Below, in pieces: positions 19,669 through 61,453 of a DNA stretch of 64,000 nucleotides. The stretch spans positions 43,987 through 107,986 of the forward strand of contig JAZOUB010000041.1 in the NCBI GenBank assembly GCA_045657945.1, given 5' to 3'. The position numbers and the translations under genes were made by a program. The notes under the pieces are model-generated. The model had not been told where the DNA came from, ran no database searches, and saw only the letters and a list, made by a program, of their open reading frames with translations. Source of the DNA: Bacteroidaceae bacterium (GTDB lineage Bacteria > Bacteroidota > Bacteroidia > Bacteroidales > Bacteroidaceae). How positions within the stretch are numbered: position 1 is the stretch's first letter; the number at the start of each line of letters is the position of its first letter.

Positions 19669-22600
19669 TTATTTTACGAATATCTTTTTGCCATTGACAA
19701 TGTAGAAGCCAGGTTCGGTAATCTCGTTGAGCTTGCGGCCCTGGAGGTCATAGATTGTATCCTCAACCTCTCTCTCAATCTCCTCAATCTCGGTAGTTCC
19801 GTCATCGAATACAAAGCGGAAACCTGTACCCTGCTGCAACAGCTGTGCAAAGTTACCCTCAACAGGCAAGTATGCCTTGTGACTGTTGTTGGTGAATGTC
19901 GCTGTTGCTCCACCTGTTATGTATGAGTTGTTAGAGAGTGGATACATACCAACTCCATTACTTTTTTTAGTAAGGATGTAAGCATCCTTGTTTACATAAC
20001 TCTTTGCAACTGTTCCCTCAAGAATGTTTCCAACCGCTTCGGCTCTTGCCGCGTCTGTATTCTCAGTGATGATGAAATCGTATATCTTCGCCTCGTCACT
20101 CCTTAGGATTACACCTGTGTTTGCAGGGATAATACCGTTCTGCAACATTGTCATTGTAACCCATGAATCGGCTGTAATATTCTTCTCTTTGAGAACATAT
20201 GCTCTAACACCCTCGGGGATTTCAACTGCAACAGGCGCGTAGAATGTAGCGTGCAATGCCGAACCAATGGTTACAGGAAGTGACTCAACCTCCTCAAGAA
20301 CAAAGTTGTGGTTTGTTGCATGGTTATCGGGGTTGCCACTACAGTGGTCAACATAGCGTGTTGTGCCATCTACTGCGTGCAAGTAGCTTGGTGCAGCAAT
20401 GGTTGTTGTCTCTCCGCTGGTTGTTATTGTAACAGTGCCGCTTGTTCCAACAGCCTGCAGACCGCGTGTTCCGCCATCCTCTTTTATGTATGTACCCTTG
20501 TCGTATGAGAGCAACTTGTTGTCGGCATAGTAGAAGATAGATGCGGCGCCAGTCTCTTTTGTCATAAGCAATGCGTTAGCCTTATTGGTTACACCGCTTG
20601 CCTCGCTCTGGATGTAGTACCTGTTGGCAGGAGTTTCTGGAGTTTCACCGCTGCCTTCACCTTCGTCACCTTCACTATTGCCTGTTTCTATCATGGTCAA
20701 AGCTGTTACATATATATATCGGCCTATAATTCCAGATAGTTTGAATGAAGTTTCCCCTTCTATAAATGTGATTGTTTGTACACTCGTACCTCCATTCAGT
20801 GAAACATTTTCTGAATTGTAAGAAACGGTCATGTCATATGTTCTGTAGCCGTTCTTATAACTCATCTCTGTTAGGGTGTAACCTTCGGGAACAGTAATTG
20901 TATATTCAACAGGTGTTGTAACTCCGTCAATGAGGTGCAATTGGAAACCATTATTGTATTTCATTGATGCAATTTCAGTTCCATTAGCATCTCTTGCAAT
21001 AATATTAACTCCGTTATCACTAGTCCATTGCGAATAAGTGGTCTTATCTCCCGTTTGTCCACCGAATGCTCCAGTTGTCAAATCTATTGTCACCACATCT
21101 CCAGCCGCTCTTGCAGCGCCTGCGCTGGCTGCAGCTGCGAAACCGTCATATCCAATGCGGTAGTAAACACCGGCTGTGGCATTCTCAACAGGGAGGAAGT
21201 TTGCAACATACTCGGCATCCTCCATATTCTCCACATTTGCAATGCCGGGGATAGTGTATGGGTTCTCGCTGCTGACAACATCTGTACCCTTTGTCCAGTT
21301 TACAAAGTAATAACCGGTATTTGCGGTTGCTGTGATGGTTGCCTCCATATTATGGCCCACCTTAATGGTTGTTCCTGATGAAGTGTCTGATTCTGCAGTT
21401 ACTGTACCATAGCTGTCATCATTTGCACGAACGGTGAGGTTGTATGATGCAGGCTCAAAGGTGGCTGTGTAAGTTACATCCTTCTCAATGGTGATGACAA
21501 GATTTTGCTCATTGCCCACAATGTTGTCATTCTCATCTTTCCAAATTGTTTCGTAGCCATAGCTTAACCAAGTGTTTATCATAACCTCGGTTCCTTCTTT
21601 CACAACGGCTCTGTTACTTGCATCATAGCCCAATGATGTTCCATCGGGGAGTGTGATTTTAGTGACATATCCAATTCTATTGCTTTTGGGTTCACCTATT
21701 ACAACACAACCACGGAAGAAGCGTGCCTGGTATGTTGCGGCCTCTGTTGCCTGAACAGTTATTGCAAGCTCTTTGCTCACAAGTACATCGTTCTTGTACC
21801 AACCGTCGAACAGGTAGGCCTTCTGGTCGTAGTCGGATGATGCAACAAGTTCAACATCGGCACCTACAACGAAATCGGCATCAGTTGCCCACGCCTGTCC
21901 AATGTTGTTGATGATAGCCTTTACATTACCATCTACAGCGTTAGTTACAGTTGTGCCGTCGGTCGATGCAACTGTGATGTGTATTGCAACTGTGCCTGTT
22001 GGAACCTCATTGAAACGTGCAGTGTAGTTGATGTGGCTTGTGACGGTGAATGTATAACTTGCCTCAGCGCTTATTAAATTCTCTCCATCGTACCAACCTG
22101 CAAAACTGTAGCCAGTACTTGGTGTGGCTGTGAGTGTCACCTCGCTGCCATGTTCAACATTTGTTGCGCTTGCGGTTGCGCTACCGCCCTCGCCGGCTGT
22201 TACATTGATGTTGTATATGTTGATTGCAAAGTTCACATTAATGTTTGTCACCCAATTTTTTGATCCACTTGTGCTTGTGGTGTATTCAGCATTTTCGCTA
22301 AGTACAGTACTGGTAGAATCGGACCAGTTTACAAAGTGGTAACCTACGGCAGGTGTAGCTACAAGAGGAAGTTGATATCCAATAGGAGCTTTTTTCTTTG
22401 TAACATTCTCCTCGCCATTGATGCTTGTTGTTCCGCCTTCAGTTGGTTTAATGTTCAATTTGATAGCCGGCCATCTCCAGGCTTCTTCCAATATGGCAGC
22501 GTATGCATTGATAGTGTTGTATGTCAGGCCACCCCATTTTTCGAAATCACCCAAGTTCTCAACTATTGGAACCAGCGCGTCTGTAATGATACATTTGCCT

Positions 22601-25600
22601 TCTCCTACACCTGCATAGTAATAGTACATTGCATATGTATCATTGAGCATGACTTCATAGTAGGGTGATTCAACAAACTCAAACCAAGCACCCTGGTGAC
22701 CATTGCTGTTGTAGTGTGTAGCGTAGTTGTAACCGGTTGCCGATGTGGAACAAAGATAACCCTTTTCTTCGCCCACGTTTGCTGTAAGAGAATACTGTGC
22801 ATCGGTATAATAATCATTTCCTGCAGGTTTCTTCTCGATTGTGAACACTGTTGCATCTATGGCATTCTCTACATATACCACATTCTGAGCATCACCATTG
22901 GCAACACTTGTTACCTGAATGTATTTACCTGTAAGCTCGTTCTTGAAGATGAACTCAAAGCTGTTGTTTACGTTGTAGATAGCCCAAGCAATCTTTGGAT
23001 TACCTCCCATGGTGTTGTATGTAGGGTGGTCGCCATAAGCGTAAGAGCCTGTAACCTTTGGTACATAAGTGTCATCAGCACTTGAAGCCGACAGATATAC
23101 CGGGTAATCGTTGTTTTTTGTATTTGATGGCCAGTAGATATTATGCCATATCTCATTCTGAGCATTACTTACTTTGAATGGTAATATGACATTGTTGGTA
23201 TATGTATAAGAATTGCCATTAATCTGGAGCTTACCATTGTCAATAACTTCATCTTCACTTTTTTCACCTAATGCTATATAAGGATACAGCTCAACCAACT
23301 TGGCAGCAACAGTTTCTTTTGTTATACCGTTGGTGAAGCCGTCCAACCGAATGCGATATTCATTGGTTTGGCCTGCATTGGTACCGATAATCTCAGTCAA
23401 GACAACATCTACAACTATCTGCTCAAAGTTCGCCTCAAGGCTCAATGCCTCGCTCACAGTTACGGTGTATGGGTTTTGGTCACTTACAACATTGCTGTTT
23501 CTTGCTTCGGCTGTTCTTGCAGCTGCGCTTGCCTGTGCAGCAGGTCTTGTCCAGTTGACAAAACGGTAACCGGGGTTGGCTGTTGCAAGAATTGAAACCG
23601 TTGCGTTAGCAGGTACAAACTTGTTGTTAACAGTCTCGGCAGCACTGCCATTTACTGTAATTGACACACTACCGGGAACAGTTTCTGTTTCCTCATCATT
23701 TACAGTCAACACAACCTCGCGGTAGCTCTCCTTAACGTTCTGCACAGTCTCGGTGTGTGTGTTAAGGGTGTTGAGAGGCGTATTCGCAATATTTTCTATA
23801 ATAGCCTTGATTGCATTGATGTCGTTATTGTCGGTGTAATTGCCATCACCGGCACCAAACTTGGCAACATTTTCTGTCAAAGCATCAATAATAGCCTGAT
23901 AGTCGGGAGCCTCAACGAACTCAATCCAAGCACCTTGGTGACCATATCCGTTATTACTATTGTTGAAATAGTGTGTTGCGTAATTGTAGCCTGTTGCCGA
24001 TGTTGAGCAGAGATAACCTGTTGTCTCGCCAACCTTTGCAGCAAGTGCATACTGTGCTGGAGTATAATAATCATTTCCTGCAGGCTTGTTGAAAATTGTG
24101 AACGCTGTTGCCTCCTCAATATTTTCAACATAAACTACATTTTGAGCACCATCATCGGCAACATTTGTTACCTGAATATACTTTTGGGTAACCTTGTTCT
24201 TGAAGATGAACTCAAAACCGTTGTTTACATTGTAGATAGCCCAACTGATTTTTTCATTACCATCCAATGTATTATATGTCGGGTGGTTACCATAAGCGTA
24301 TGAGTCTGTTACCTTTGGTACATATGTGTCATCTTTACTTGAAGCCGACAGATATACCGGGTAATCGTTCTCTCTAGTGTTTGCCGGCCAGTATATGTTG
24401 TGCCATACAGTTGTGTTGGCATTACTTACCTTGAATGGCAATGTCACAGTGTTGGTGTATGTGTTGTCTGCAATAGCACCGTTCTCGCCCAATGTAATGA
24501 ATGGGTATGTTGTTGTCAGGTAAGTTGCTACAGCAGCTGCATCGTTGGGAACGTAGTCGAGTGTCTCTCGGTAGATGTTGCCCTCTGTATCGGTAAGCTC
24601 AATGTTGAACTCAACAGGTACATATTCAACATCTGCATTCGGGTTAAGGAAATTGTTGTTTGTAATCTCCTCAATTGTCAAAGGAACATATACCATTGAG
24701 TAACCATAGGTGTTGTCGTCGTTATGACAAGGAGCCTCCTCAAAGAAGAATGCTATCTCGCCATTCTCCTGCAGTGCCATTGCGCTGTATGCGCTCTGCA
24801 CTGTGCTCACCTGCAAGCCCTTTGTCCAACCGCCTGCAATTGAAGACGGAGTCTGTGTCTCGTTGCCAATCTCCTTGTACCAGATGGTTACATCCTTGCG
24901 GTCCCAAGTGCTTGAACCACCCTGTGGCTGTGACTGCAACAGAATTTTTGTAGGCTTGCCGTTGGTTTGCTTTGCGTCAAGGCAGATTATTTCACCGTTT
25001 GTGCCGTTTTTGCCTTCATTGCTGCAACCGCTGACAGCAGTGCCCCAAGTGCCTTCGCCGGCAGCCTTGTCGTTGCCGTATGTGAAGACATTGAACACAC
25101 GGCTACCACCGCTTGCGTGGCGTGAACTGAGCAGAACCTGTCCGTTTGGCAGAATCTCAACCTTTGGCTCGTCAGCTTCGGCTATATGTGTTTTGCTGCC
25201 ACCGAGGATATTCCAGGTTGCACCCCAGTCATCCGAGAACAGAACATAGTTGTTTGTGCTGCGTGCGCTGTTCTTTAAAAGGATTGCACCATAGACACGT
25301 GCCTTGCCTGTGCCGTTGAAGTCGGGGTCAACAGCCAATTTACCGCTGCCGAAGAATGTTGCGTATGCCTCGTCGAAGAGACCAAAGATATTGCTTGTAA
25401 CCTCCTCTTTTGTCCAAGATTGACCATTGTTGTTGCTGTAGATACGGTAGGTCTTATTTTTGTTTGTTGCATTGGCATTGGGGTAGAATACATTGCCGGC
25501 AACAGCCATAACAAGGATGTCCTGTCCGTTGGCTACAATAGCTGCATCGCCGTAACCGAATGTCGATGTACCCTCGGCTATAGTCTGCTTTGCAGTCCAA

Positions 25601-28600
25601 GTTGCACCGTTGTCGTCGCTTGTACGCATAACAAGGTCAACTCTGTTTGTTCCTGTGCCGTGGTTGTCGCGGCCAATATCATCGTGGCTGTGACGGTAGT
25701 CGCTCACTGCAACAAGGCGGTTTGTGCCGGTCTTTGCAATGGCAGGGATGCGGTATGAGAATTCATCATCATCGTAGAAGAGTGTCACATCATTGGTTGC
25801 TGTGAACTTTGCAACAAGCGGAGTAGTCTCGTTGATTGCTGCAACATTGTCAGCTGTGAGTGTCGGGTTTGTTCCAAGTGATGTCGCGCCAATGTAGAAA
25901 CCGTTGAACTCAAAGCCACGATACTTGCGTGTGAATGCAAGTGTTGTACCCTCGGCGAGTGGCATTGTAAGCTCGCTTGCTGTTTGGTGAGCTGGAGTGA
26001 GCTTCATTGCTGTTCCGCCAATGGTTATTGTACCCAAGTGAGTATTTGGATTATCGTTTCTCCAGTTCTCAACCTCGGCCTGGAACATTGCCGGCACAAA
26101 CTCCTCTTCAATGTATGTGATTTCAAGAGCTGTGATGAAGATACCATTTCCTGCAGTTCCACCTACACCAATGTTAATGGTATTGGTTTCAAGTCCTGTT
26201 GCAGAAATAGTTTTTTCTGTAGTACCACTTATTGCAATAGTACCGGTATTGTTGTTTGTAGCGGTATATGTAACATCACCAGAGAATGAATCACCTTCTC
26301 CCCTGATAGTCATACTATATCCTGCAATTTTATATGGTTCAGGGATAGAAATTGTAAAATTAGTTGCTTTAGCCAAATATGGAGTTTTATTACCATTAAC
26401 CTTGGTAGTCCAACCAAGATTGTTGTTAGTAATTCCATCCACTTTGATTGTTACAGTTGGAGTTGTGTTTACAACTGCTTTGTAACCCCAACCGCTGTTT
26501 ATTGTATTACCGGCATAGTTTGTATATGTAACATCTGCAAATGTAAGATTCAATGTCTTCTCGTTAGAAGGGATAACCTCCTCGAGAACCCAGGTAGAAG
26601 CTGCGTTTGAAGCTGCATCACAATATACATATCCGTTCTCTGCCTTGAAGTAATCGTCGCGCTCAACACCGTTATTCATGTTCGTGTTGTCCCACTTGAT
26701 GAGGTACTCAAGTTCGTTACCTGTTGTCTCAAAGGTGAGTACTGTGGCATCGTTTGCGCTGGTGGTGTTTGCATTGGCATTCCAAGCGTGGCACTTGATG
26801 TAGTTGCCGCTGTTTGCTTTCAGTTTATAGCCATCGCCGCTCTGCTCAAAGAGGAATATCTGTGTGTCGCTGCTTTCGTTCTTGGCAACAACAGTTACAC
26901 CACTTGTTGAACCTGTATTGTTGCTTGTATTTGCAATGTTCATATAGTTGGTGGTGTTCTTTACCTTCAAACGGAAGAACTTGCCTGCAAGAGATGTTGT
27001 TGGTTCTGTCGGCGTATTTGACTCAAAATTTGCAACATAGTTTGAAGCCTGTGCCACGCTTACATTGCAAGTTGCTTCGGTGCTAACCACATTTCCGCCC
27101 AATGTCCAGTTTACAAAGTTGTAACCGGTGTTGGCGGTAGCATAAAGTGTTATCTGAGTTCCGTTTTCAACATCGCCCTGTGTCTTTTGGCTACCAGTGC
27201 CAACTGCGAACTTTGCTGTACCACCCGCTGCAGGGTTTGCAGTCGTTGTAACGGCGTAGGTTGTTGGGGTTGGGTCAGGCTCCGGCTCCGGCTCTGGGTC
27301 GGGAGTTGGGGTAGAGGCTCCGCCTTCTGACTGGATGGTTACTGTAACTCCATCTTCCAAAATTGCCAAGCCGGCACGACCGGCATAAGTTGAACCCAAT
27401 ACAAACGAAGTGCTTTGTGAATTGATGTCTGATGCAGAAAACACAACGCCTGCAGCAGCATTATTTACATTTGTTGTATTTCCTCCAATTGTAACATCAA
27501 TTGTGTAAGAACTACTGGGGCTTTTACCCTTAAAACTGTAACTTTTTATTATATAACCTGCAGGTGCAGTCAATGTATAAGTTATATCCGAAACAAGTGT
27601 CTCAGAGTTTCCTACAGGCGCTTTTGCGAAGAATGTATTGACGGTTGTTGAAAGGGCATAAGCCGGCTCAGAGCCTTTCGAACAGTTCAATACAATACCG
27701 TCGCTTGTTGTCCAAGTGCTGCAATAAGATCCATTAGCTCCACTTATCTCTACACTCGAAATGTTAAATGTGCAATCTTTCTCAACCAGCACATTTGCCT
27801 CATCGTCAAAGTTTGCAACATAGTCATTGTCGGATGCACCTACTTTTACCTGTAGTGTGTTCTTTGTGCCGACTATGACACCGTTCTTTGTCCAATTTGC
27901 AAGTGCATAACCGTCGGCAGGGTGTGCGGTGAGGGTTGCGGTGAAGTTCTCATTAATTTCTGCGCTTGCAGTTGTTCCGGCAGTTCCACCATTGATTGAA
28001 ACAGTACCCATATTTGAAGGTGTAGCTGTTGCAGTAACGGTGAATTTTTCTGTTTTTGGCGCAAGGTTAAAGAGTGCGTAATGTTCTGCACCATCTATCC
28101 AAGAATAATTGTCGCCTTGAGAAGGAGTGATAGCGTCAAGTTTGAACCAACCATTACCCGAGCCGTTCCATCCGAAGTTGAAATGAAAGTAATTATTGGC
28201 TGTGTAACCATCAAGGACAAACATATGGCGTGTATCACCTGTACCACTATTATCTGACGCGTATGGTATTGGGCAACCGTTGTCAATGCTCTCCTTGATT
28301 TTTTCAATCCACTGCTCCATAGTAAAGTTTGCCTGGTATGAGGCATTGATGAGCTGGTAATTGAAATAGTCATTCAGAACCTTGCTGTCCGATCCTTCGT
28401 TTACAGTTGTTGCACCGGTGCCTATACTTGAAGGGAAACAGGCGTGCAGTATGTGTGAGAAGAACTTTGAAACCTCGTCAATCTGCTCCTGTGTCCAGTC
28501 ACTGTTGTATGTAAGAGGCATCTTGCTGAAATCATATACTCTGTCGGTTATCTCTACATATGTAGGTGCCTGACAGTTGTACAGGGTCTTGGCTGTTCCT

Positions 28601-33956: not shown

Positions 33957-35717
33957 TTACTTTACAAGTGTTTTTTTGCCATTTACAATGTAGATACCGG
34001 GAGCAGTGATAGCCTCTACACGGCGGCCTGTGAGGTCGTAAACAGTTTTCACATTTCCGTTTTCCGTTTTCACCTCTTCAACGCCTGTTGTACCCTCGCC
34101 AAAGCGGAAGCTGAAGTTTGCTGCACCCTGTGCTGCTGCAGGAACTGCGCTTACAGGCAAGTATGCCTTGTTGGCATTGTTAAGGAAAACTTTTACTGAA
34201 CCAGATGCTTGACTTAGTGCTATAGTGGTCATCTGTGCCTTGTAGAGGCCGGTTTCGCCTTCAACAACACCAAGTATGTAAGCCTGACCAATGATGTTGG
34301 TGTTGATTACTGTACCCTTGAAAAGGTTGCCGGTTACGGCTGCTGCATTTGTCTCTGATACACTGAAAGTGTACTCACCCTCTGCGCCCTCAAGGATAAC
34401 GGCTGTGTTTGCAGGGATTACATTCTCAATCTGTGTCAATGTTACTTTCTCACCATTGAAACTTCCTTCGGTAATGTAGTATGCCTTTACATTCTCGGGG
34501 ATTTCAACCTCAGCAGGTGCATAGAATGTAGCATAGCCGACACCGCTGATATTAGCCTTGAATGAAGCAACTTCTGCAACCTCATATACATAGTGGATAG
34601 TCCAACCGCCGGTTCCGGTGTTATAAACAGGAGTGCCGTTTGAACCATTCTGGACGTTAATCCAGTTGCTGCCTTTTACAAAGCGTACAAGGTTGGCGTC
34701 GTTGCTGCCTGTGATGTAAAGGTTTGAGTCGCCGTCGCCGTTGAATGTACCGTCAACGCCGGGAGCTGTTGCTGTAAATACTGCAGCATTGTCAATTGTT
34801 CCAAAATCCTTTGGTGATGATGTCTGCATGTATGTGCCGTCCAATTTCTTCAAATAGTATGAACCGGCTTGACCTGCGTTCACAGGCTCCCAAACAAAAA
34901 TTGCATCATTTGTGAACTCCTCCTCGCTGTAAGGTACTGCGCCAGTGTTGCCCACAAACCAACGGTTATTTGTGTAAGAGAGGTTTTTGATTGCAATGTA
35001 TGTGGGCTCGGTTTTTGCCATCAAATCACTTGCTGTAACCTGTGTGAGGTATGAAACTTCTGCGGGTTCTTCAGGGAGCTCGGGAGTTGCAACCTCAGTG
35101 TCAATAGTCACCTTGAACAATCCATAGAAGCAACCATAGGCTGTGTAGTTGTTGACAATGTTGATTTTGAGTGTTACGGTTCCGTCAGCAGCCTTGATAG
35201 GGGTACTTGGAACAAAATTTACTGTTACACTTTCACCTCCATTAGAGTTCACCTTGATTGCGACCTCGTTATGTTGAGCTACTGTGGCGTCATCCTGCTT
35301 TAGAATGAAATCAATATGCTGTGCGTTTGCATTGTCGCCCTGAAATGCACCACCGCCATTCAAAGCAACGCTCTTGAGTGTTATGGCCGTGAATTCGTAG
35401 TTGTCGGGAACACCTGCAATGGTAAGTGTTATTACGCCCGCCGCATCACCGGTCATGTCCTTTGTGTTCTTGTCTGGGCAAAGGATGCTTGAATTTGGAA
35501 ATGTTGCGCTATTTGCTCCAAATGCTTTCCAGTTGTAGTTGCAAGCGATAGTTGAGGTGATGCCTGTTGCATCAACATCGCCAGTGCCTGTCACTGTAAC
35601 ATTTGCGTCAGTGCCTGCCGCACTGTTGTTTCTTGAGAATGTCAAGTCAATTGCATTCTGCGCCATTGTTGCTCCACAGAAGAGCGCAAGCGCCATAGAT
35701 AGTAAAATTTTCTTCAT
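33957..35717 (-). CDS. T9SS cargo protein, adhesin/lectin-like (586 aa)
   Basis: Signal peptide MKKILLSMALALFCGATMAQ. CTD is VYDLTGRRVEAITAPGIYIVNGKKTLVK. The roughly 200 aa before the CTD are homologous to the same region of the giant protein. Confidence 0.8.
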   Translation of the reverse strand: MKKILLSMALALFCGATMAQNAIDLTFSRNNSAAGTDANVTVTGTGDVDATGITSTIACNYNWKAFGANSATFPNSSILCPDKNTKDMTGDAAGVITLTIAGVPDNYEFTAITLKSVALNGGGAFQGDNANAQHIDFILKQDDATVAQHNEVAIKVNSNGGESVTVNFVPSTPIKAADGTVTLKINIVNNYTAYGCFYGLFKVTIDTEVATPELPEEPAEVSYLTQVTASDLMAKTEPTYIAIKNLSYTNNRWFVGNTGAVPYSEEEFTNDAIFVWEPVNAGQAGSYYLKKLDGTYMQTSSPKDFGTIDNAAVFTATAPGVDGTFNGDGDSNLYITGSNDANLVRFVKGSNWINVQNGSNGTPVYNTGTGGWTIHYVYEVAEVASFKANISGVGYATFYAPAEVEIPENVKAYYITEGSFNGEKVTLTQIENVIPANTAVILEGAEGEYTFSVSETNAAAVTGNLFKGTVINTNIIGQAYILGVVEGETGLYKAQMTTIALSQASGSVKVFLNNANKAYLPVSAVPAAAQGAANFSFRFGEGTTGVEEVKTENGNVKTVYDLTGRRVEAITAPGIYIVNGKKTLVK

Positions 35718-45450: not shown

Positions 45451-45480
45451 GTTATTTATGGTTTAGTTAATATTTATTTG

Positions 45481-45526
45481 TTAAAAGGCCTAAAAGGGCA
45501 AAAAGGGCGAAAAGGGCGAAAAGGCA
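45481..45526. repeat. Phased AAAAGGG array, 5 units at exactly 9-bp spacing
   Basis: TTAAAAGG CCTAAAAGGG CAAAAAGGG CGAAAAGGG CGAAAAGG. The GG starts fall at 45487, 45496, 45505, 45514 and 45523. Confidence 0.7.
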
Positions 45527-45534
45527 TTCTCATC

Positions 45535-46206
45535 TTAACTCTCCTTGCTGATCTTCCCGTTTTCATCGTCATCCTCGGGGCGCAGCGTTGGCAGGCAAAT
45601 TTGGTATTTGACAGCCAAAGCACGGGTCAGGAACACTGTTGCACCACAGATGAGGTGCGTTGGGAATGTTGCAAGCCCTGTCCAATGGCATATAGCAAAA
45701 GCTATGCCACCCACGACACAGGCCATGGCATATATCTCCTTGCGGAAGATGAGCGGTTCTTCATTTATGAGCACATCGCGTATGACACCACCGGCGGCAC
45801 CGGTCATTGTACCCATTATGATTCCAACCCAGATTGTCTGTCCGCATGTCAATGACTTTTGGATACCAACTACGGTGAACAGCGCAAGGCCAATGGCGTC
45901 GAACACAAAGAATGTGTTGTGCATGTGTACAAGGTTCTTGCGAAAGATAATCACCCACAGTAATGCCAGGCCGGTACACAAAAGATATGTGCCGTTCTCC
46001 ATCCAGAAGACAGGTTGGTTCAGCATTAAATCGCGCAGTGTACCGCCGCCAATGGCTGTTGCTGCACCAACAACATAGGCTCCGAACCAGTCGAAACGTT
46101 TTGCCGATGCAAGTCGTATGCCGCTGATGGCAAAGGCGAATGTTCCTACAAAATCTATGATTTCAAGGAAGTTTATATCTTGAATCCAACTCATGTGTTG
46201 TTGCAT
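45535..46206 (-). CDS. Trimeric intracellular cation channel family protein (UPF0126/YadS-like)
   Basis: Duplicated glycine-rich motif (GTFAFAISGIRLA...GGGTLRD and GAAGGVIRD). The start is ambiguous between M at 46206 and M at 46194. Confidence 0.8.
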   Translation of the reverse strand: MQQHMSWIQDINFLEIIDFVGTFAFAISGIRLASAKRFDWFGAYVVGAATAIGGGTLRDLMLNQPVFWMENGTYLLCTGLALLWVIIFRKNLVHMHNTFFVFDAIGLALFTVVGIQKSLTCGQTIWVGIIMGTMTGAAGGVIRDVLINEEPLIFRKEIYAMACVVGGIAFAICHWTGLATFPTHLICGATVFLTRALAVKYQICLPTLRPEDDDENGKISKES

Positions 46207-48279: not shown

Positions 48280-48289
48280 TGGCAATGCG

Positions 48290-48604
48290 GTGGGTGGGCT
48301 GCTGAACTATTCTATAGCTTTGCTGTTCGTGGCATTTGCCCTGTCTGTACTCTTGGGCAAGGCCGATTGGGTTATTGGAAAATACAAGCCTGTCCTCAAA
48401 GAGCACAGGCTTGTATTTGTCAAGTATCGCAGTTATGACCCACGGCGTGCACGACCATTATTTGCATTTCTTCTCTTCTTGTTGGCTGCTTTTATTGTGC
48501 TGGAATATCTGTTCCGCCCATTGCCGCTGTATTGCGCAGTCATACTGCTTGCGCTTGTGGTGCCCATAGCTGTGTATGTGGAAGTCCGTTGCCGTCTGAA
48601 GTGA
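48290..48604 (+). CDS. Hypothetical small membrane protein (104 aa, GTG start)
   Basis: Three predicted hydrophobic helices. There is no ATG in frame. No family recognised. Confidence 0.35.
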   Translation: MGGLLNYSIALLFVAFALSVLLGKADWVIGKYKPVLKEHRLVFVKYRSYDPRRARPLFAFLLFLLAAFIVLEYLFRPLPLYCAVILLALVVPIAVYVEVRCRLK

Positions 48605-48642
48605 GGCAGTTGAAACGTAAATTCAGAATACGGTTGTTACTT

Positions 48643-54577: not shown

Positions 54578-57295
54578 TTATCTTATAAAGACCTTCTTGC
54601 CATCAATGATGTAAATACCTTTGCTTGGAATGTCAACTTTTCTTCCTGTCAAATCGTAAATGGTTCCAATTTCTCCGTTTTCAATCTCAATATCCTCAAT
54701 CGCGGTGTTGTTGAGTTCCACAGCGCGGATACCCCAAGTTGCGGCATTCGTAAGCTGATCTGAAGCGACGATAGTATAGCTGTTGACATCCATCGCCAAA
54801 TACTTTCCACAGCCCTGTATGGTAAAGTATATAGTGCCGTTGTCAAGATAGTTTGCCTTGAACACCAGCGCCTCCTCCTTGCTTTCTCCGCTGCATGATG
54901 TTCCGTTGTTGGCAATATCATTTATGTACAAACCATTCTTGTTCTTGATGTAGTAGTGGTGTGCAACACCTGTGCTCTCGAACATCCAACGCTTGTTTGG
55001 TGATGTATTCGCCATAGTGTTCGCAATGAGGCCATACTTGTCATAACACATGCTATATGACCTCAATTCACCGTTGGCAAGTGTATAAACATCAAGTTCC
55101 TTGAGGTATGCACGTGCCGATGGGTCATTCTTTAAATCCACCATCTCCTGCTCGAGCAATGCTATCCACTCCTTGTAGCTATGCTTGCTTGTATCCTTGC
55201 TGTCGGCAGCAGCCTTGGCCTCGTTGTACAGTGCTGTGATTTCAGTCAATGCACTCTTGTAGAAGTGACCGACCTCCTTGCCGGTTGTGGTAGTCTTGCT
55301 TGTGAGGCTCTTCACTGACGATAAAGTTGCATTTAAAGCCTCAAGCTGCATCTCCTCGTCATCGCTGTCTGCGACATTGGGCACTTCATAATCGGTACCG
55401 TCGGCCTGTGCAGCCACCACTCTCAATGGAGCATTTGCCTGTGCAACAGGCACTGTCAACTTGAACCCGTTGTTGAAGTCGAGCAACTCGCCGGTAGCTG
55501 CATTGTACAATTTGAAGCCGAGAGCACCCTTTACATCGGCAGCCTGCTTGATAGTAATGTTGTTCTGTATTCTTGCATAGTAATATCCCTGAGCCTTAAC
55601 ACTCTCGTCGATGTAATCGCTCCACTGTCCCGTGCTACCCATCTTGCCAATTGCAAACTCATCATTGAAGTTCAATCTATTACCGGCAACGCCATCGGTT
55701 CTTGGAGATGGTTTGATGCGGTCCTCAATGAATAGAAGGTGACCGCCCTTCTTTGCAAAACGCTGCATACGCGCACGGCTTGCCTCGGCCTCCTCTTTGG
55801 TGAGGTTCACGATGAAATTCTCATAATCACCCACACCCGCATCGGTCATAGGCTCAAACATACCCCAAGCCTCAAAGAACTCGCTGAGGTCCATCTGCGC
55901 AACATCGCAGCACACCTCGGCAAATCTCAGCTGGTCATCCTTGGCCTGTGTCAGCGAAGTCCAGTTGCGGTCTTTGGGTCCCTTGTCAAGTGGATTCTTG
56001 CGCAGAGCCTCGAACACTCTTGGATAGAATGTGGTGTCCTTGCCTGCTGCATGGAAATAGAGATAGAGCTGGAAGAACATTCTCGACTTTGCGATGATGT
56101 CACTGCCGCGCAACGGGAACGGAGTCTTGTTGCTGAAATCCTCGCGGCACACGCTCACACCGTTTCCACGTGTAGTTGTCTTTCCGGTGCGGAAAATCTG
56201 TGCATTGGCAAAGAGGTTGTTGGTGGCCTCGGTACATGATACAATGTTTATTGCATTCTGGTTTACATGGCCAATCTCGTGTGCCGGTCCCCACATCTGT
56301 CCCGGATCGGCGTACACCTTTTCCCAAGGCAGGATGTCGGGCAGTGTGTAATACTCATAGTAAGTATATGTCTCTGTCGCATACATGAACATACCTTCAT
56401 AGCCGTCCTTTGCCATAATCAGGTCGTTCCAACGGTCATAGTATTTGTCTGCGCCCATCAGCTCATGCTGCCACTTTACGCACTGGTCCCACCATTTGAT
56501 GGCATCGGTGATTGTGTTGGGGCATGCATTCAGCACATTCTTCAACTCCATGTGGAACATCACCCTCTCGCCAAGTACCTGAACCGAGTAGTGCTTCATC
56601 ATGTTCTGTGTCATGTCGCGCCAATCCTCATCGGTGTGGCGTGAAAGGTCGAAGTAACCGTTCACATATCCGCCCTCGATGTGGATGGGTACATTGGGGT
56701 AGTCGGCAAGCTTCTTGCTTGTAGCAGAGCTGTCTGTGTCAACATAATACTGTATGAACAACATACGGTCATCACCCTCTGTGTCGGGAATCTTCACTAC
56801 GTTCAATCCGCTTTGGAGCACATTTGTCATCAATGGACGGGGCATGTTGCCGGCCACAGGGGCAAGTTCCATCCAGATTGAGTCGGGCAACTCACTGCCC
56901 ACGAAAATGAGCACATACTCATTGTCTGCACTGATACCTGTGGGGTTCTGCAGTTCACTGTATTGTCTCACATTCATCAGGTACTTCCAGTTGTAGGAGT
57001 TACTGTAGGGCTTGGCCTCGAACACGCGGAACTCCTTCTCGCGCTTTTCCCAAGTATTGTTCTTCACCTTCAAGGCAATGTTTATAAGTTCTTCGGGCAT
57101 CGCACTCATTGTGGTACGCAACTGCTCGTCGGTCATTGCAGAGTAGGGAACTGCAAGTTCTGTACAGATGTCATCGACAAAGTAGTTCTTGAACTCGGCA
57201 TAATAACGCTGCGCATTGTTTGTTGTCAGCTGTGCATTTGCAGTCACAGCCACAGCAAGCAATAGTAATGTGAGAAGTAGATTTCTTAGTCTCAT
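54578..57295 (-). CDS. M60-like (enhancin-type) zinc metallopeptidase with lectin-like C-terminal module and T9SS CTD (905 aa)
   Basis: Zinc motif GPAHEIGHVNQ. Long collinear similarity to the next gene. CTD is IYDLTGRKVDIPSKGIYIIDGKKVFIR. Start is at MRLRNLLLTLLLLAVAVTANAQ. Confidence 0.85.
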   Translation of the reverse strand: MRLRNLLLTLLLLAVAVTANAQLTTNNAQRYYAEFKNYFVDDICTELAVPYSAMTDEQLRTTMSAMPEELINIALKVKNNTWEKREKEFRVFEAKPYSNSYNWKYLMNVRQYSELQNPTGISADNEYVLIFVGSELPDSIWMELAPVAGNMPRPLMTNVLQSGLNVVKIPDTEGDDRMLFIQYYVDTDSSATSKKLADYPNVPIHIEGGYVNGYFDLSRHTDEDWRDMTQNMMKHYSVQVLGERVMFHMELKNVLNACPNTITDAIKWWDQCVKWQHELMGADKYYDRWNDLIMAKDGYEGMFMYATETYTYYEYYTLPDILPWEKVYADPGQMWGPAHEIGHVNQNAINIVSCTEATNNLFANAQIFRTGKTTTRGNGVSVCREDFSNKTPFPLRGSDIIAKSRMFFQLYLYFHAAGKDTTFYPRVFEALRKNPLDKGPKDRNWTSLTQAKDDQLRFAEVCCDVAQMDLSEFFEAWGMFEPMTDAGVGDYENFIVNLTKEEAEASRARMQRFAKKGGHLLFIEDRIKPSPRTDGVAGNRLNFNDEFAIGKMGSTGQWSDYIDESVKAQGYYYARIQNNITIKQAADVKGALGFKLYNAATGELLDFNNGFKLTVPVAQANAPLRVVAAQADGTDYEVPNVADSDDEEMQLEALNATLSSVKSLTSKTTTTGKEVGHFYKSALTEITALYNEAKAAADSKDTSKHSYKEWIALLEQEMVDLKNDPSARAYLKELDVYTLANGELRSYSMCYDKYGLIANTMANTSPNKRWMFESTGVAHHYYIKNKNGLYINDIANNGTSCSGESKEEALVFKANYLDNGTIYFTIQGCGKYLAMDVNSYTIVASDQLTNAATWGIRAVELNNTAIEDIEIENGEIGTIYDLTGRKVDIPSKGIYIIDGKKVFIR

Positions 57296-57425
57296 ATTGT
57301 TAGGTTTTGTTTTTGCAGAATTTACCAAAATAGTTATAATATTGTGCCAAAAGTAGTGCTTTTTAATCAAATAAACAATAATAGGTGTTGTGATATATTA
57401 TATAAGGTAACAAATGTATAAAAAA

Positions 57426-57520: not shown

Positions 57521-60500
57521 TTACTTCACAAGAACCTTTTTACCACCCTGGATGAAAATACCTCTTTCAGGATTTACAACTCGGCGACCGTTGAGGTCAT
57601 AGATTGCACCGTTGACATTAGCCTCGGGAATCACGTTCTCGATGTTTGTGATAATGTCGGCAACCTCCTTGTTGTTCTCAATAAGCGCAATCTGTACTCT
57701 CCAGTAAGACTTTGAAGCAGAAAGCTGTACTGCTGTACCTCCATCGTAAATGGTCTTTTCTGCCGCTGTCATAAGCAAACCATCATTCTTTGCATCATAC
57801 TCAATTGTCACAGGCAAGAAATCCTCCTCGGCCGAGGTGAAGATATAGTTCTTTGTGCCCTGGCGATATGCGAATCCCTTCTGACCTGCATTGTAGAGTT
57901 TGTACTCACCGGCCTTACCTGTTGAAACAAAGCTCCACAGAACGTCGTCGGTAACCTCGTCGCTCATCTCTACACGTCCCTTTCGGCTTGCCTGTGTTCC
58001 ATTATAGATACCTGCAAACTTCTCGCTCTTGTTGCTTATGATGTAGTACCATATAACCTGCTCGCCCTTTGTCACCATTGGAGCTGTCACTATGTACTTG
58101 CCCTCAATGTCGGTCAACTGCTTGCGCAATGTATTGGCATACTTCTGTAGCTGTGTTGCGGTAGCATTCTCCATGTTTGCCGATACCTCATAATATGTAT
58201 CGAGCAAGTTGAGTGCGTATGTGTTCAGGTTGTTGTCCTTTACAATGATTCCATCATTGAAGATGTTCATTGTTTGCAGGCTGTCAAGGTTAAGTACCTC
58301 GGTAATCTTTATGTTGGCCTCGGTCATCAATTCCTCAACAGCAGCCTTGTAGAATGCAAGTGAGTTGTCCTCTACAATATCCACGCGCCACTTTGCGCCG
58401 GTCTCGTTGAGCGGGAGAATACCGACGCTTCCGCCATCGCTCAGACCAAGAGTCTGTTCGCTGCCGTCGGCAAGGATGAAGTTTACACCACCATCATCGG
58501 TATAACCGACTGTGAACTTGAGTGCATCCTCCTGCTTCTTGGTCTCAAGGAAAGCACCGGCGGTTGTGAGGTTTGTCAGATAATAACCTGTTGATGTGCA
58601 TTTGAGGAAGTACTCGCCAACCTTTCCTGCATACTCGATAGTCCAATTGATGTTGCCGCCGGTCTTGTTGGTTGTTGTTGCTGTAGGATACTCACCGACT
58701 GCATAGTAACCTCTGTAAGGATTAATCAATCTTCTCATTGTAAATACAGCACCCTCCTTGATGGTAATGCGTGCATCCTCGTTGTTGAGAACCTTGCTGC
58801 ACTCATCGTCGAGCATAATGCTCCACTCGGCAAACGAATACTTGCTTGTGTCATTAGCCTTGTAAGCGGCATTCGCCTCCTTGTATAATGCCTCAAGGTC
58901 AGCAATAGCCTCGGGATAGTAATAACCCACAATAGTGTTTGCAGCAGCCTTTGTGGCAATAATTGCGCTTGCCGATTTCAATGAACCGTCAAGAGCCTCC
59001 TTCTGCATTGACTCGGGACCCTGTGAAGCGTGAGGTACCTCATAGTCTGTACCGTCGGCCTGTGCTGCAACAACCTTCAAAGGCGCACCACTTGCTGTTA
59101 CAGGTACATTCATCTCATACTTGTTAGTGTAAGAGAGCAACTCACCTGTCTCGGCATTGTAGAGCTTGAAACCAAGCGCACCGCTTGCACCCTCAGCCTC
59201 CTTTATAACCACCTTGCCCTTTGAAACGGCATAGTAGTAGCCCTGAGCCTTCACAGTCTCATCGATGTAATCCATCCACTGGCCAAAGTTACCAACGGTA
59301 CCGATAGTCTCGCCATCCCAGTCGGCATAGTTTGCACGGTAGCCTGTACCGTCGCAGAATGGGCTCTTCTTTCTTGGCGACTTGCGCACGCGGTCCTCGA
59401 GGAACATCAAGTGACCACCCTTCTTCTCATACTTCTGCATACGGGCCTTGCTTGCCTTGGCATCCTCCTCGAGCAAGTAAACCCAGTGGTGACCATAGTC
59501 GCCCACGAACGCATTCTTCATTGGGATAAAGAATCCCCATGCCTCGAAGAACTCGCTGAGGTCCATCTGTGCAATCTCACAGCAAGCCTCGGCAAACTTC
59601 AGCTGGTCTTTCGAAGCATCTACAGAGTTTCTGTAGAAACCGTTCTCGTCAAGTTCGTCCCAAGATCCTACTCTCCAACCCGGCAGCTGGTCGTAACGCA
59701 ACTTCTCGAACAGACGTGGATAGAATGTGGTATCCTTCTCTGCTGCGTGGAAGTAGAGGAACAACTGGAAGTACATACGTGTCATACTGAACAGCTTTGA
59801 ACCATACATACCCTCACCGCGTACAACGTATGGAATCTTGTTCTCGAAGTCGAGAATCTGGTTATCCATGTTGTTGCCACGGCTCACGTGTGTACCCTGG
59901 TCAAAGATGGCAAAGTTTGTGAGCGCGTTGTTGCTCACCTCGGATGTACCCACAATCTGGAACGCATACTGGTTTGTGTGACCGATCTCGTGGTTTGGAC
60001 CCCAAGAGCTGCCGGCATCGGCAATAAGCAGGTCATAGTTCACGATTGTGCTCAGAGTATTGTTGTTGTAGTGTGTGCGGTAAGCACTTGCATCCATGAA
60101 GCCGTTGTCGTCACTCATGGCAAGCTGCTTGTTGTTCATCCATGGATAATACTTGTCAAGAGCCATGTAGTGGTTCTGACGGCTGTTCCAGAAATCCCAA
60201 AGGCGCATTACACCCTCAATGTTGTCGGGGCACTCCTTGAGGAACTCGTATGTGCGGAAGTTGAGCACGGTGAGGTCACCGGCAGCCTGTACGGCAGTAG
60301 GGTTCTTGAACATGTTGTCGCGCATGTAAACCCAATCCTCGTTGGTGTGTCCGCGCTCCTTGCTCCAGAAACCGTTCACGTAACCGTTCTCGATGTGAAC
60401 CTTTACGGTAGGGTAGTCGGCAAGTTTCTTGCCGTCGATAGCAGTCTCGCACACATAGCGGATGTAGAGCGAACCGTCCTTGTTCGCACATGGTACAATG

Positions 60501-61453
60501 TTCAAACCCTCCTTCAAACGTGTGTCGTTACCCCAGAACTTGGTGCTCGCCATTTCTGCAAGGTCAATTGTTGTACCCTCGGGAATCTCCTCTACAAACA
60601 CATAGATGAAGCTCTTTGAGTCGCTTGTGCTGATACCGGTAGGGTTGTTTATACGGTTATAAGGACGTGTAAACAATCTGTCGGCCCAAACCTCGGGGTT
60701 GCTGTATGGCTTGTAGTCATAAATGCGGAACTCCTTCTCGCGTGTAACGCTGTCCCAAGCATTGTTCTTTATCTTGAGAACAGCCTGCTGCAGGTCGGCA
60801 GGAACACCCTCGAGCTCGGCGATGATCTCGGCATCGCTCTTTGCTGCCCACTCGGCCTTGAGCACAGTGCAGGCATTGTCTTCAAAAAGGCCACCCACCT
60901 TTGCTGCAATAGCATTGGCGTTGTTGAGCACCTTGGCATAATCCTGATATGCGGCAGCAGCTGCAGCAATCTCCTCGGCACTGATGTTTACCTCTTCAAA
61001 TGTCCACTCGGTACCCGAAATCTCATTGGTACCGTAACTCCATGGTACAATGTTTGAACTGCCGTCGCAGTGCATACCCCAGTTCTTTGTCGGGGTGAGG
61101 TCGATGTTGTAGCAGCCCTTGAGCATTGGGTTCTCGGTAACAGTGAACTGTGTCACGGTGTTGCCGGTCTTCCACTGGACATTACGGCCGGTCTCGTACT
61201 GCACATAACGCTGTGTATAGACATTCTTAATTGTAAACTTGCCGTCATCGGCAGCGTTGAACATCCACATCTCGTGGTAGTCGGTTGCTGTGCCTTTTGA
61301 CGCGCATGACAGTGTGTGCAGGATGGGGCTTTCCGACATCACTGTGCCATATTTTGCACTTACAATGCGGTAAACCTTTCCGTCCTCAACCTGTGCAAAA
61401 GCAAAGGTTGCAAGCATTACAAGGAATGCTGTGAGTAAAGATTTCAGTTTCAT
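57521..61453 (-). CDS. M60-like zinc metallopeptidase with N-terminal ricin-type-like module, C-terminal modules and T9SS CTD (1310 aa)
   Basis: Zinc motif GPNHEIGHTNQ. Paralog of 54578..57295. CTD is IYDLNGRRVVNPERGIFIQGGKKVLVK. Confidence 0.85.
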   Translation of the reverse strand: MKLKSLLTAFLVMLATFAFAQVEDGKVYRIVSAKYGTVMSESPILHTLSCASKGTATDYHEMWMFNAADDGKFTIKNVYTQRYVQYETGRNVQWKTGNTVTQFTVTENPMLKGCYNIDLTPTKNWGMHCDGSSNIVPWSYGTNEISGTEWTFEEVNISAEEIAAAAAAYQDYAKVLNNANAIAAKVGGLFEDNACTVLKAEWAAKSDAEIIAELEGVPADLQQAVLKIKNNAWDSVTREKEFRIYDYKPYSNPEVWADRLFTRPYNRINNPTGISTSDSKSFIYVFVEEIPEGTTIDLAEMASTKFWGNDTRLKEGLNIVPCANKDGSLYIRYVCETAIDGKKLADYPTVKVHIENGYVNGFWSKERGHTNEDWVYMRDNMFKNPTAVQAAGDLTVLNFRTYEFLKECPDNIEGVMRLWDFWNSRQNHYMALDKYYPWMNNKQLAMSDDNGFMDASAYRTHYNNNTLSTIVNYDLLIADAGSSWGPNHEIGHTNQYAFQIVGTSEVSNNALTNFAIFDQGTHVSRGNNMDNQILDFENKIPYVVRGEGMYGSKLFSMTRMYFQLFLYFHAAEKDTTFYPRLFEKLRYDQLPGWRVGSWDELDENGFYRNSVDASKDQLKFAEACCEIAQMDLSEFFEAWGFFIPMKNAFVGDYGHHWVYLLEEDAKASKARMQKYEKKGGHLMFLEDRVRKSPRKKSPFCDGTGYRANYADWDGETIGTVGNFGQWMDYIDETVKAQGYYYAVSKGKVVIKEAEGASGALGFKLYNAETGELLSYTNKYEMNVPVTASGAPLKVVAAQADGTDYEVPHASQGPESMQKEALDGSLKSASAIIATKAAANTIVGYYYPEAIADLEALYKEANAAYKANDTSKYSFAEWSIMLDDECSKVLNNEDARITIKEGAVFTMRRLINPYRGYYAVGEYPTATTTNKTGGNINWTIEYAGKVGEYFLKCTSTGYYLTNLTTAGAFLETKKQEDALKFTVGYTDDGGVNFILADGSEQTLGLSDGGSVGILPLNETGAKWRVDIVEDNSLAFYKAAVEELMTEANIKITEVLNLDSLQTMNIFNDGIIVKDNNLNTYALNLLDTYYEVSANMENATATQLQKYANTLRKQLTDIEGKYIVTAPMVTKGEQVIWYYIISNKSEKFAGIYNGTQASRKGRVEMSDEVTDDVLWSFVSTGKAGEYKLYNAGQKGFAYRQGTKNYIFTSAEEDFLPVTIEYDAKNDGLLMTAAEKTIYDGGTAVQLSASKSYWRVQIALIENNKEVADIITNIENVIPEANVNGAIYDLNGRRVVNPERGIFIQGGKKVLVK

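Follow-up and report, generated by a model that had tools for sequence, protein, structure and literature searches.

Does a concentration of genes for type IX secretion system (T9SS) cargo, with the look of a toolkit for host glycoproteins, form a mucin-degradation locus in its own right, or does it belong to something spread over the whole genome? This question is raised by a 64,000-nucleotide stretch of a Bacteroidaceae genome (GenBank assembly GCA_045657945.1, contig JAZOUB010000041.1, positions 43,987 to 107,986; hereafter the window), in which a preliminary description had listed seven T9SS cargo genes and a secreted sulfatase. We propose that the seven genes are probably the largest local group of a genome-wide, host-glycan-dominated T9SS secretome, which amounts to a coherent repertoire but not to a discrete or autonomous locus. 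The source organism belongs to an uncultured gut genus of the Bacteroidaceae, kin to Prevotella and Paraprevotella; its NadA is 88-94% identical to those of metagenome-assembled genomes (MAGs) from yak, sheep and human gut, and about 70% identical to that of Paraprevotella.

All open reading frames (ORFs) of the window of at least 150 amino acids were scanned with Pfam and NCBIfam. The seven tail-bearing ORFs of the preliminary description are real: each lies on the minus strand, has a signal peptide at the N-terminus and ends in a common C-terminal tail, referred to below as the short C-terminal domain (short CTD). These genes, the sulfatase gene, which shares their strand, and the translocon gene sprA, which lies 5.7 kb from the first cargo gene, are as follows.

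2068-9450, minus strand: sprA/sov, T9SS outer-membrane translocon, 2460 residues (Pfam SprA_N, 710 bits)
15203-16174, minus strand: stand-alone C10 cysteine peptidase, 323 residues, signal peptide and short CTD (Peptidase_C10, E = 9e-51; tail model, 79 bits)
19669-28851, minus strand: giant protein of 3060 residues, with a C10 domain (43-236), a GH33-type sialidase (about 940-1400), six Flg_new_2 repeats, a pre-CTD module and a short CTD
29168-31123, minus strand: lectin-like cargo protein of 651 residues, with weak ricin-B, GEVED and Flg_new_2 matches and a short CTD
31218-32828, minus strand: Ser-type S1_20 sulfatase (Pfam Sulfatase, 185 bits), with a SAPSR motif and a signal peptide of the SPI type, without lipobox or CTD
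33957-35717, minus strand: cargo protein of 586 residues, with an N-terminal beta-sandwich, a possible beta-trefoil, the common pre-CTD beta-sandwich and a short CTD
41596-45450, minus strand: GH20 beta-N-acetylhexosaminidase, 1284 residues (GH20, 354 bits), with GH20b, a C-terminal MucBP domain (37 bits) and a short CTD
54578-57370, minus strand: M60-like O-glycopeptidase (M60a), 930 residues, with Peptidase_M60, M60_C and a short CTD
57521-61453, minus strand: M60-like O-glycopeptidase (M60b), 1310 residues, with ricin-B, Peptidase_M60, M60_C and a short CTD

The domain calls agree with the identities first given to the C10, C10-sialidase, GH20 and two M60-like proteins, and the M60, GH20, GH33 and C10 catalytic motifs are intact. 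None of the scanned ORFs belongs to the SusC/SusD, hybrid two-component or extracytoplasmic function (ECF) sigma/anti-sigma families, in agreement with the preliminary description, and the window therefore lacks the features by which a Sus-like PUL is recognised. Since all seven proteins combine a signal peptide with the same tail, and since Sus and sensor genes are missing, that inventory was correct.

The case for T9SS cargo turns on the tail. It is about 45 residues long and contains four motifs: the cleavage site is T|GI, and the other three are IYDLxGR (motif B), GIYI (motif D) and GKKVxVK (motif E). The consensus in the seven window proteins is ...T(G/A)IE(E)V...IYDLxGR(K/R)V...(P)GIYI(V/I)xGKKv(l/f)VK, and that of a hidden Markov model (HMM) of the tails is TGIEEV..E.GE.K.IYDLxGRxV...T..GIYIVNGKKVLVK. 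The tails had been called canonical T9SS CTDs, a label that we dropped after PF18962 and TIGR04183 matched none of the seven proteins (NCBIfam, E <= 0.1) and none of the isolated tails (Pfam, E <= 10); homology was tested by profile-profile comparison instead. In an hhalign comparison, a profile of 43 short tails aligned with one made from 11 long CTDs of this genome at a probability of 96.5% (E = 9e-10), in register at TGIEEV, IYDLxGR and GIYI...K..VK and with two internal deletions. TIGR04183 has 12 matches genome-wide; 11 fall in other proteins, whose CTDs are long (about 85 residues), and the twelfth (C37:37974-40085) falls in a protein that is also caught by the short-tail HMM. The HMM built from the seven window tails retrieves 54 ORFs genome-wide, with the match at the C-terminus of every one, at most six residues from the stop, so the genome holds 54 short-CTD against about 12 long-CTD proteins. 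Compared with PDB sequences, the tail profile gave a weak match to RgpB CTD structures and a strong one to the C-terminal end of an arabinanase from the bovine rumen (4KCA).

The closest described counterpart is found in Prevotella intermedia, whose short CTDs comprise 43-55 residues, would fold, by prediction, into one three-stranded sheet and carry the T/GI site with motifs B, D and E (PMC11969387); mass spectrometry showed that they are cleaved and that the C-terminus is glycosylated (Ye et al. 2025, Open Biol., PMC11969387). The tails described here agree with that class in length, in their strictly C-terminal position, in the T/GI site with its conserved Ile, in motif B (Y..GR/K), in motif D (GxY-I, with GxN variants) and in the basic pair of motif E, and both organisms combine short and long CTDs in one genome and have a C10 protease among their cargo. 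They differ in that P. intermedia is an oral pathogen whereas the present genus is a gut and ruminant one with cargo consisting mostly of host-glycan hydrolases, and in the ratio of short to long CTDs, which is 54 to about 12 here, as counted from genes alone, compared with 48 to 32 in P. intermedia. It is well grounded, on this homology, to regard the window tails as predicted T9SS signals of the P. intermedia short-CTD class (short type-A), which extends the class beyond the sole species in which it had been reported. An order-wide sample with one genome per family gave short-CTD matches at E <= 1e-8 in only two of 40 other genomes, so the class is phylogenetically restricted.

One might instead suppose that the common tail is some other C-terminal module, serving surface anchoring or oligomerisation in proteins that are exported by a different route. 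The failure of the curated T9SS models on all seven proteins would fit that idea, as would the size of the tail, since a three-strand module of 45 residues is far smaller than the solved seven-strand CTDs. We nevertheless consider it highly improbable, because an identical class is cleaved and glycosylated in P. intermedia (PMC11969387), because the strict C-terminal placement is accompanied by signal peptides, which were read directly in the seven window proteins and which appear as a consensus at the head of an alignment of 24 others, and because the genome encodes the translocation machinery. The latter is represented by SprA_N in the window and by PorV elsewhere in the genome (497 bits, C49:18168-19295, adjoining a long-CTD protein of 1266 residues), from which we conclude that T9SS machinery is encoded. 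We thus return to the tails as T9SS signals, and infer secretion and surface anchoring of the cargo from them.

Just before the short CTD, about 15 cargo proteins share a further module of about 140 residues (...NNANKAYLP...F.F.F..GTTGIEEV), with 33-48% identity by BLAST. It lies at 33957-34400 in the 586-residue protein, at 19669-20200 in the giant and in at least 13 other cargo genes; AlphaFold2 (AF2) models it as a beta-sandwich, and it corresponds to no Pfam family.

If the tail accounts for delivery, the catalytic domains point to the substrate. Both C10 domains, that of the stand-alone peptidase (Cys motif GCVATA, His motif RHMFVIDG) and that of the giant, keep their Cys and His motifs. 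The sialidase region of the giant matches the exo-alpha-sialidase 10qf in the PDB (E = 3e-62) and has a RIP motif at residue 1042 and two SxDxGxTW Asp boxes; it falls below the curated cut-offs of Pfam BNR_2 (29.3 against 31.4 bits) and of the NCBIfam neuraminidase equivalog (242 against 900). Assignment to GH33, a family defined by a six-bladed propeller with RIP and Asp boxes, accordingly follows from motifs and the PDB match and not from family cut-offs. In the GH20 protein the catalytic D-E pair lies in HIGGDE at residues 339-342, and the best PDB match is 7DUP (E = 3e-153). The two M60 proteins score 80 and 65 bits against a Pfam cut-off of 25.8, with the HEIGH zinc site at residues 364 and 488. 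Among PDB entries, the 930-residue protein is most similar to BT4244, an O-glycopeptidase of B. thetaiotaomicron (5KD2, E = 1e-66), and next to B. caccae O-glycopeptidases and other M60 structures; the 1310-residue protein is its tandem paralogue at 42% identity. Both have the domain and the HExxH motif of an M60 O-glycopeptidase; likeness to known structures comes directly from the shorter protein and through this identity for the longer one. Counted from Met26, the shorter protein would have about 905 residues (54578-57295). The tandem pair is conserved in the related genomes G007, G009, G010 and G012.

The two remaining cargo proteins are less easily placed. The lectin-like protein has no PDB sequence match, and the 586-residue protein has no Pfam match. 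For the latter, an AF2 model of moderate quality (mean pLDDT 74, pTM 0.51) gave weak Foldseek matches of low TM-score to jelly-roll and beta-trefoil binding modules, to CBM51 and to CBM-like cyclases, and on this model the protein is probably a non-catalytic glycan binder.

An eighth candidate lies at the right edge of the window and was the 'discoidin' gene of the preliminary description.

61814-64000, plus strand: 5' part of a gene for a secreted protein of 1279 residues

The gene does run off the window, as stated, although the label did not survive: the best F5_F8_type_C_2 match to the window part has E = 0.065, and the full protein has no Pfam or PDB match. Its C-terminus (...TSIEDL...VSVAYFTPAGAAI...KGVNIV...KKKVVK) aligns by hhalign with the short-CTD profile (83%, E = 9e-6), and it is therefore probably an eighth cargo protein, with a predicted CTD of medium length and of the GxN type.

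The SAPSR motif and signal peptide of the sulfatase bear out the earlier claim of a secreted Ser-type enzyme; the tail is absent. Its best solved relative is BT1636 (7AN1, 627 bits, E = 2e-187), the S1_20 3-O-sulfo-galactose sulfatase that Bacteroides thetaiotaomicron needs for access to colonic mucin. In an alignment to 7AN1 the Ser nucleophile and the residues that recognise galactose-3-sulfate (E100, Q173, H177, E334 and R353) are all kept as in BT1636; the residue list was taken from bioRxiv 10.64898/2026.08.28.747710, and chain numbering in 7AN1 is native numbering plus one. An insertion of about 25 residues at 150-174 is absent from BT1636. By these residues the window enzyme is a predicted BT1636-like 3-O-sulfo-galactose sulfatase, and it is probably periplasmic because it has neither lipobox nor CTD. 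The lectin-like gene starts 94 nt after the sulfatase stop codon, and owing to this small gap the two are probably co-transcribed. The preliminary description had advised a search for the anaerobic sulfatase-maturing enzyme (anSME) elsewhere in the genome, and such a gene was found at C8:72237-73355 (TIGR03942, 495 bits).

The same theme runs through the rest of the genome. Short-CTD proteins comprise 62,248 residues, or 7.3% of the 2.57-Mb genome, and mucin-related cargo occurs at more than 20 other genomic places. Beyond the window there are 47 further short-CTD proteins, among them three M60 peptidases, four BNR sialidases, three GH95, two GH20, one GH123 and one GH89 enzyme, as well as one sulfatase, one GDSL esterase, peptidases of families S8 and M12B, an endonuclease I, six BspA-type leucine-rich repeat (LRR) proteins and four proteins of the F5/8-type C kind; no families for plant cell walls or plant polysaccharides are found among these listed proteins. 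With the window included, the short-CTD set has five M60 peptidases, about five sialidases and three GH95 enzymes. By BLAST there are exactly three sulfatases in the genome, with best matches to BT1636 (3-sulfo-galactose), to BT4631 (S1_15, 6-sulfo-galactose/N-acetylgalactosamine (GalNAc); 708 bits) and to BT3177 (S1_11, 6-sulfo-N-acetylglucosamine (GlcNAc); 683 bits). The BT4631-like enzyme carries a short CTD, and the BT3177-like enzyme is a lipoprotein adjoining anSME. The anSME and BT3177-like genes, on the minus strand, are divergent from a GH20 and two sialidase-type short-CTD genes within 15 kb (C8:72237-86946), a group that constitutes a second, tighter host-glycan locus. Fusions of enzymes recur among the cargo, as in the window's C10 and GH33 giant (3060 residues) and a GH20, GH33 and ricin-B protein of 1667 residues (C37:55014-60017).

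Genes for the use of released sialic acid are encoded on contig C42 (67032-74052) in a nan cluster with a lyase of the dihydrodipicolinate synthase (DHDPS) type, a GlcNAc 2-epimerase, a fusion of NanM and SSF, and a GDSL + SASA sialate O-acetylesterase. Neither of the two DHDPS-family genes reaches the cut-off of the NanA equivalog TIGR00683, and after this miss the role of the C42 lyase was settled by gene context and Pfam. The fusion in this cluster, in which a NanM-like mutarotase (Kelch) is joined to an SSF sodium:solute symporter in 852 residues, is unusual. The genome also has eight SusC-like genes, all on contigs other than that of the window (C1, C15, C25, C29, C35 and C37), and the one at C1:161354 directly follows a CTD gene (C1:158638-161082). 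Since there are eight of them, at least one of which stands beside a CTD gene, the T9SS enzymes are probably suppliers of Sus-type or other importers and not a substitute for them.

Taken as a whole, the enzyme set was first read as serving to strip and cut sulfated, sialylated O-glycoproteins, and we come to the same view from the S1_20 specificity residues, the BT4244-like M60 peptidases, the MucBP domain on the GH20 protein and the intact catalytic motifs. The repertoire could, however, serve chiefly adhesion, immune evasion or the processing of other sialoglycoconjugates (IgA and other immunoglobulins, N-glycoproteins, milk, epithelial glycocalyx or glycolipids), with the C10 peptidases acting as interpain- or SpeB-like virulence or colonisation factors. 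Such a function would agree with the C10 peptidases of P. intermedia, which are T9SS-secreted complement degraders (PMC11205867), with the six BspA-type LRR proteins, with the breadth of GH20 and GH33, neither of which is specific for O-glycans, and with the 586-residue protein, which is lectin-like in architecture and has no catalytic domain. It is less easily reconciled with the M60 peptidases and the three sulfatase types (3-sulfo-galactose, 6-sulfo-galactose/GalNAc and 6-sulfo-GlcNAc), which fit a set defined on colonic mucin O-glycans, or with the GH89, GH95 and GH123 cargo and the complete nan cluster, which point to feeding on released sugars; the MucBP domain speaks for the same substrate. 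We regard a mainly non-nutritional role as quite unlikely, and keep to mucin-type O-glycoproteins as the probable substrates.

It remains to ask how far the seven genes form a unit. They span 46.3 kb, the largest cargo count in the genome, and when 54 points were placed at random over 55 contigs in 20,000 trials, a count of at least seven in 46.3 kb arose in 0.7% of trials (P = 0.007). To this extent the 'exceptional density' of the preliminary description stands. It is qualified by denser triplets elsewhere, with three cargo genes in 8-12 kb on contigs C5, C30, C53 and C15, and by the composition of the span, of which cargo coding sequence occupies 53% while the remaining 47% or so contains about 16 unrelated genes in addition to the sulfatase.

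Gene order in relatives divides the window in two. Within the genus one conserved order runs giant/C10, lectin-like, sulfatase, 586-residue protein, PrmA, (GT4), MatE, (GT90), FKBP, GH20, glycine transporter, PAP2 and NadA, in which the GH20 gene has a fixed position between the FKBP and glycine-transporter genes; a separately conserved order runs GH77, FNT, one or more M60 and the 1279-residue protein. Of 19 related loci with 10 kb of flank, not one has the NadA|MlaD junction that joins the two blocks here. In the closest genomes, G010 and G007 (proteins 90-97% identical), NadA is followed by a block that lies on C29 in the present genome, in other relatives by the C42 nan block and a C8 cargo gene, and in G009 an orthologue of the GH20-sialidase cargo fusion (on C37 here) comes after the giant gene. 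Cargo genes thus repeatedly come to neighbour each other, and the particular set in the window is not a conserved unit. The junction itself (48280-48640) includes a membrane ORF of about 107 residues and is unique to this genome among the relatives examined; it is either a recent rearrangement or an assembly join.

Two other origins of the cluster were considered and set aside. Misassembly through repeated CTD DNA is unlikely, since no two tails match exactly over more than 44 nt, a length that would not suffice in k141-type assemblies. A genomic island at the tmRNA gene was rejected, as neither a duplicated tmRNA 3' end nor an att-like repeat occurs nearby; the only direct repeats near the tmRNA gene are a pair of paralogous genes for small lipoproteins, one on either side of the C10 gene.

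The cis-acting elements of the window bear on the same question, and those of most interest are the following.

32983-33110, upstream of the sulfatase gene: phased palindromic array of TAAGG/CCTTA
35784-35790, minus strand: G7 tract, about 19 nt upstream of the TACATTTG -7 box of the 586-residue gene
35812-35912, at the 586-residue gene: related TAAGG/CCTTA array, a weaker form
61466-61520, 5' region of M60b: related TAAGG/CCTTA array
61578-61590, minus strand: G13 tract, then A10, in the promoter region of the 1310-residue M60 gene (M60b)

The genes had been described as individually promoted, some with poly-G tracts. Boxes of the Bacteroidetes type (TAnnTTTG) lie 47-123 nt upstream of four of the seven genes (the giant, the 586-residue gene and both M60 genes), a motif basis only; no such box was found at the lectin-like gene, 94 nt behind the sulfatase, or at the GH20 gene, 84 nt behind the transporter. 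Of the poly-G tracts, the G7 tract and the G13 tract do stand upstream of the 586-residue and M60b genes, while a G10 tract (15153-15162) lies 3' of the C10 gene and so outside its promoter. There are only five G/C runs of at least nine in the genome, two of which are in the window, and of four TAAGG arrays of at least five units three are in the window. These arrays may act as hairpins or insulators, serve as a site for a regulator, or be REP-like sequences. As a genome-wide cargo-promoter element they were rejected, being only four in number and absent at other cargo genes; they are a local feature and not the mark of a T9SS regulon.

These elements invite the view that the window is a discrete, co-regulated mucin-utilisation island, with the sulfatase, lectin-like and giant genes, the 586-residue gene and the M60b-M60a pair as units under a dedicated regulator and with phase variation through poly-G. 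The clustering beyond random expectation, the shared strand of seven genes and sulfatase, the concentration of TAAGG arrays upstream of the sulfatase and M60b genes with a weaker copy at the 586-residue gene, the two long G/C runs and the conservation of the giant-to-GH20 block in the genus all speak for it. Such an island would have to accommodate about 16 interleaved housekeeping genes (tmRNA, MntP, ResBC, PrmA, MatE, FKBP, NadA, MlaD, amidase, GH77, FNT and others) and do without a regulator gene in the window, and its arrays lie at differing positions relative to promoters. Moreover, the M60 block stands beside NadA in no relative examined, including those with 90-97% identical proteins, and the same enzyme classes with the same tails recur at many other loci. 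We consider the island unlikely, and favour the window as the largest neighbourhood, by count, of a secretome that is dispersed over the genome; any co-regulation of its genes is an inference. For the same reasons the notion of a T9SS-based alternative to a PUL, put forward in the preliminary description, holds only in part: Sus transporters and sensors are absent from the window, but the genes do not form a discrete locus, their central junction is not shared, and the genome has its eight SusC-like genes.

We therefore propose a model in which the window comprises three neighbouring T9SS cargo groups among housekeeping genes. By analogy with P. intermedia and P. gingivalis, the cargo would be exported to the periplasm by Sec, its tail would be recognised by the window-encoded SprA/Sov translocon and then passed to PorV, and the PorU sortase would cleave the tail and attach the protein to a surface glycolipid. 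On the surface, the GH33 sialidase would remove sialic-acid caps and GH20 the beta-linked N-acetylhexosamine, the two M60 O-glycopeptidases and the C10 peptidases would cut the trimmed backbone, and the lectin-like and 586-residue proteins would hold the substrate. The tail-less BT1636-like sulfatase would take the 3-sulfate off the galactose of imported fragments, and the products would be taken up by the few Sus-type or other transporters and processed by the nan pathway encoded elsewhere.

Several observations weigh against this interpretation. Curated models miss the tails, so that the assignment to the T9SS relies on homology and on one studied species. The sulfatase, a key enzyme, lacks both tail and lipobox, and could not act at the surface unless exported another way. 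GH20, GH33 and C10 enzymes act also on N-glycans, glycolipids, immunoglobulins and other proteins, and two of the seven cargo proteins, as well as the 1279-residue protein, have no assignable function. Finally, the common TAAGG arrays and poly-G tracts in three promoter regions of the window hint at a more local organisation than we propose.

Mucin degradation by gut Bacteroidota is understood almost wholly from the PULs of Bacteroides, and the comparison with B. thetaiotaomicron is correspondingly instructive. Both organisms share the three sulfatase types, a BT4244-type M60 peptidase and anSME. The B. thetaiotaomicron enzymes are either periplasmic or lipoproteins and are encoded in SusC/SusD PULs (the M60-like BT4244 in BT4240-50) with hybrid two-component or ECF regulators, and that species has no T9SS; here, the outer enzymes are T9SS-tailed, the window has no Sus pair or sensor, the genome has eight SusC-like genes, and the BT1636 homologue is without lipobox. 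The enzyme families and the short-CTD class are already known, and what differs from the Bacteroides paradigm is their delivery as T9SS cargo, in a small genome with few Sus transporters.

T9SS-dependent degraders of polysaccharides are known from environmental bacteria, for example the chitinase ChiA of Flavobacterium johnsoniae. In Cytophaga hutchinsonii, cellulose degradation is T9SS-dependent (PMC11611037). In those species, as here, T9SS-exported glycan enzymes act outside the cell, and their genes are scattered or partly Sus-linked. They are environmental, gliding bacteria that attack chitin or cellulose with enzymes bearing long type-A or type-B CTDs, whereas here a gut anaerobe would attack host O-glycoprotein with short-tailed enzymes. 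The nearest named genus is Paraprevotella, in which T9SS-dependent surface proteins of P. clara reportedly degrade trypsin. P. clara would likewise act on host luminal proteins by way of T9SS surface proteins, but with cargo families and a substrate different from those of the window. Our full-text literature searches found no paper that links the T9SS with a mucin repertoire of M60 peptidases, sialidases and sulfatases; a paper on sialidases of vaginal Prevotella does not mention the T9SS, and a 2024 review states that little is known of the role of T9SS-secreted O-glycosyl hydrolases (PMC11205867).

The genome suggests that a whole uncultured gut lineage displays mucin-cutting enzymes through the T9SS, with three mucin-class sulfatase homologues that include the BT1636 type. 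As the signal is missed by standard models, such organisms would be scored as poor in T9SS substrates and in mucin loci. We tentatively put forward a wider idea, which is possible though we would not expect it to hold in full: that this is a third architecture of mucin foraging in Bacteroidota, neither the Sus-lipoprotein PULs of Bacteroides nor free secreted enzymes. It would consist of a T9SS-anchored surface degradome with minimal three-strand CTDs on almost every outer enzyme (sialidases, fucosidases, hexosaminidases, 6-sulfo-galactose sulfatase, M60 and C10 peptidases, and fusions such as C10-sialidase and GH20-sialidase), with the sulfatase triad and few SusC proteins, and the expression of single cargo genes would be tuned by poly-G promoter tracts prone to slippage and by TAAGG arrays specific to their loci. 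If so, inventories based on TIGR04183 and PF18962 miss most of the cargo in gut Prevotella-like bacteria, and PUL-based prediction underestimates mucin-degrading capacity. In practical terms, HMMs for T9SS cargo could be improved, mucus degraders could be predicted more reliably from gut metagenomes of livestock and humans, and glycobiology would gain a set of candidate O-glycopeptidases and sulfatases.

Of the 54 short-CTD genes, nine are less than 1.5 kb away from the end of a contig, against about 3.5 expected; from this excess, cargo counts in MAGs of this kind are probably underestimates.

The remaining genes of the window are arranged as follows.

left end of the window, in order: CstA, L,D-transpeptidase, SprA, RuvA, ABC exporter and transglutaminase-like protein (Pfam/NCBIfam)
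15203 onward, in order: C10 peptidase, tmRNA, MntP and ResB/CcsA
16767-17164, minus strand: tmRNA gene (ssrA; 124 bits; tag peptide AGKNLSGNNNYALAA), with the C10 gene and mntP as its neighbours
between the 586-residue and GH20 genes, in order: PrmA, GT4, MatE, GT90 and FKBP
between the GH20 and M60 genes, in order: glycine transporter, PAP2, NadA, MlaD, amidase, GH77 with CBM20, and formate/nitrite transporter

An ORF of 177 residues at 16324-16857 overlaps the tmRNA gene and was discarded as spurious. The GT4 (37260-38318) and GT90 (39719-40678) genes, which lie within the conserved PrmA-MatE-FKBP block, occur in some relatives and not in others, and they might conceivably be connected with the surface glycan to which cargo is anchored. 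Directly downstream of the 586-residue and giant genes are ORFs of about 54 residues (MKKTYVSPLMVEV...GNLWN), at 33669-33833 (minus strand) and 19428-19613, respectively. The 84-nt interval that separates the GH20 gene from the glycine-transporter gene (45451-45535) contains a run of GCCCTTTT(C/T/A) units (GCCTTTTCGCCCTTTTCGCCCTTTTTGCCCTTTTAGGCC).

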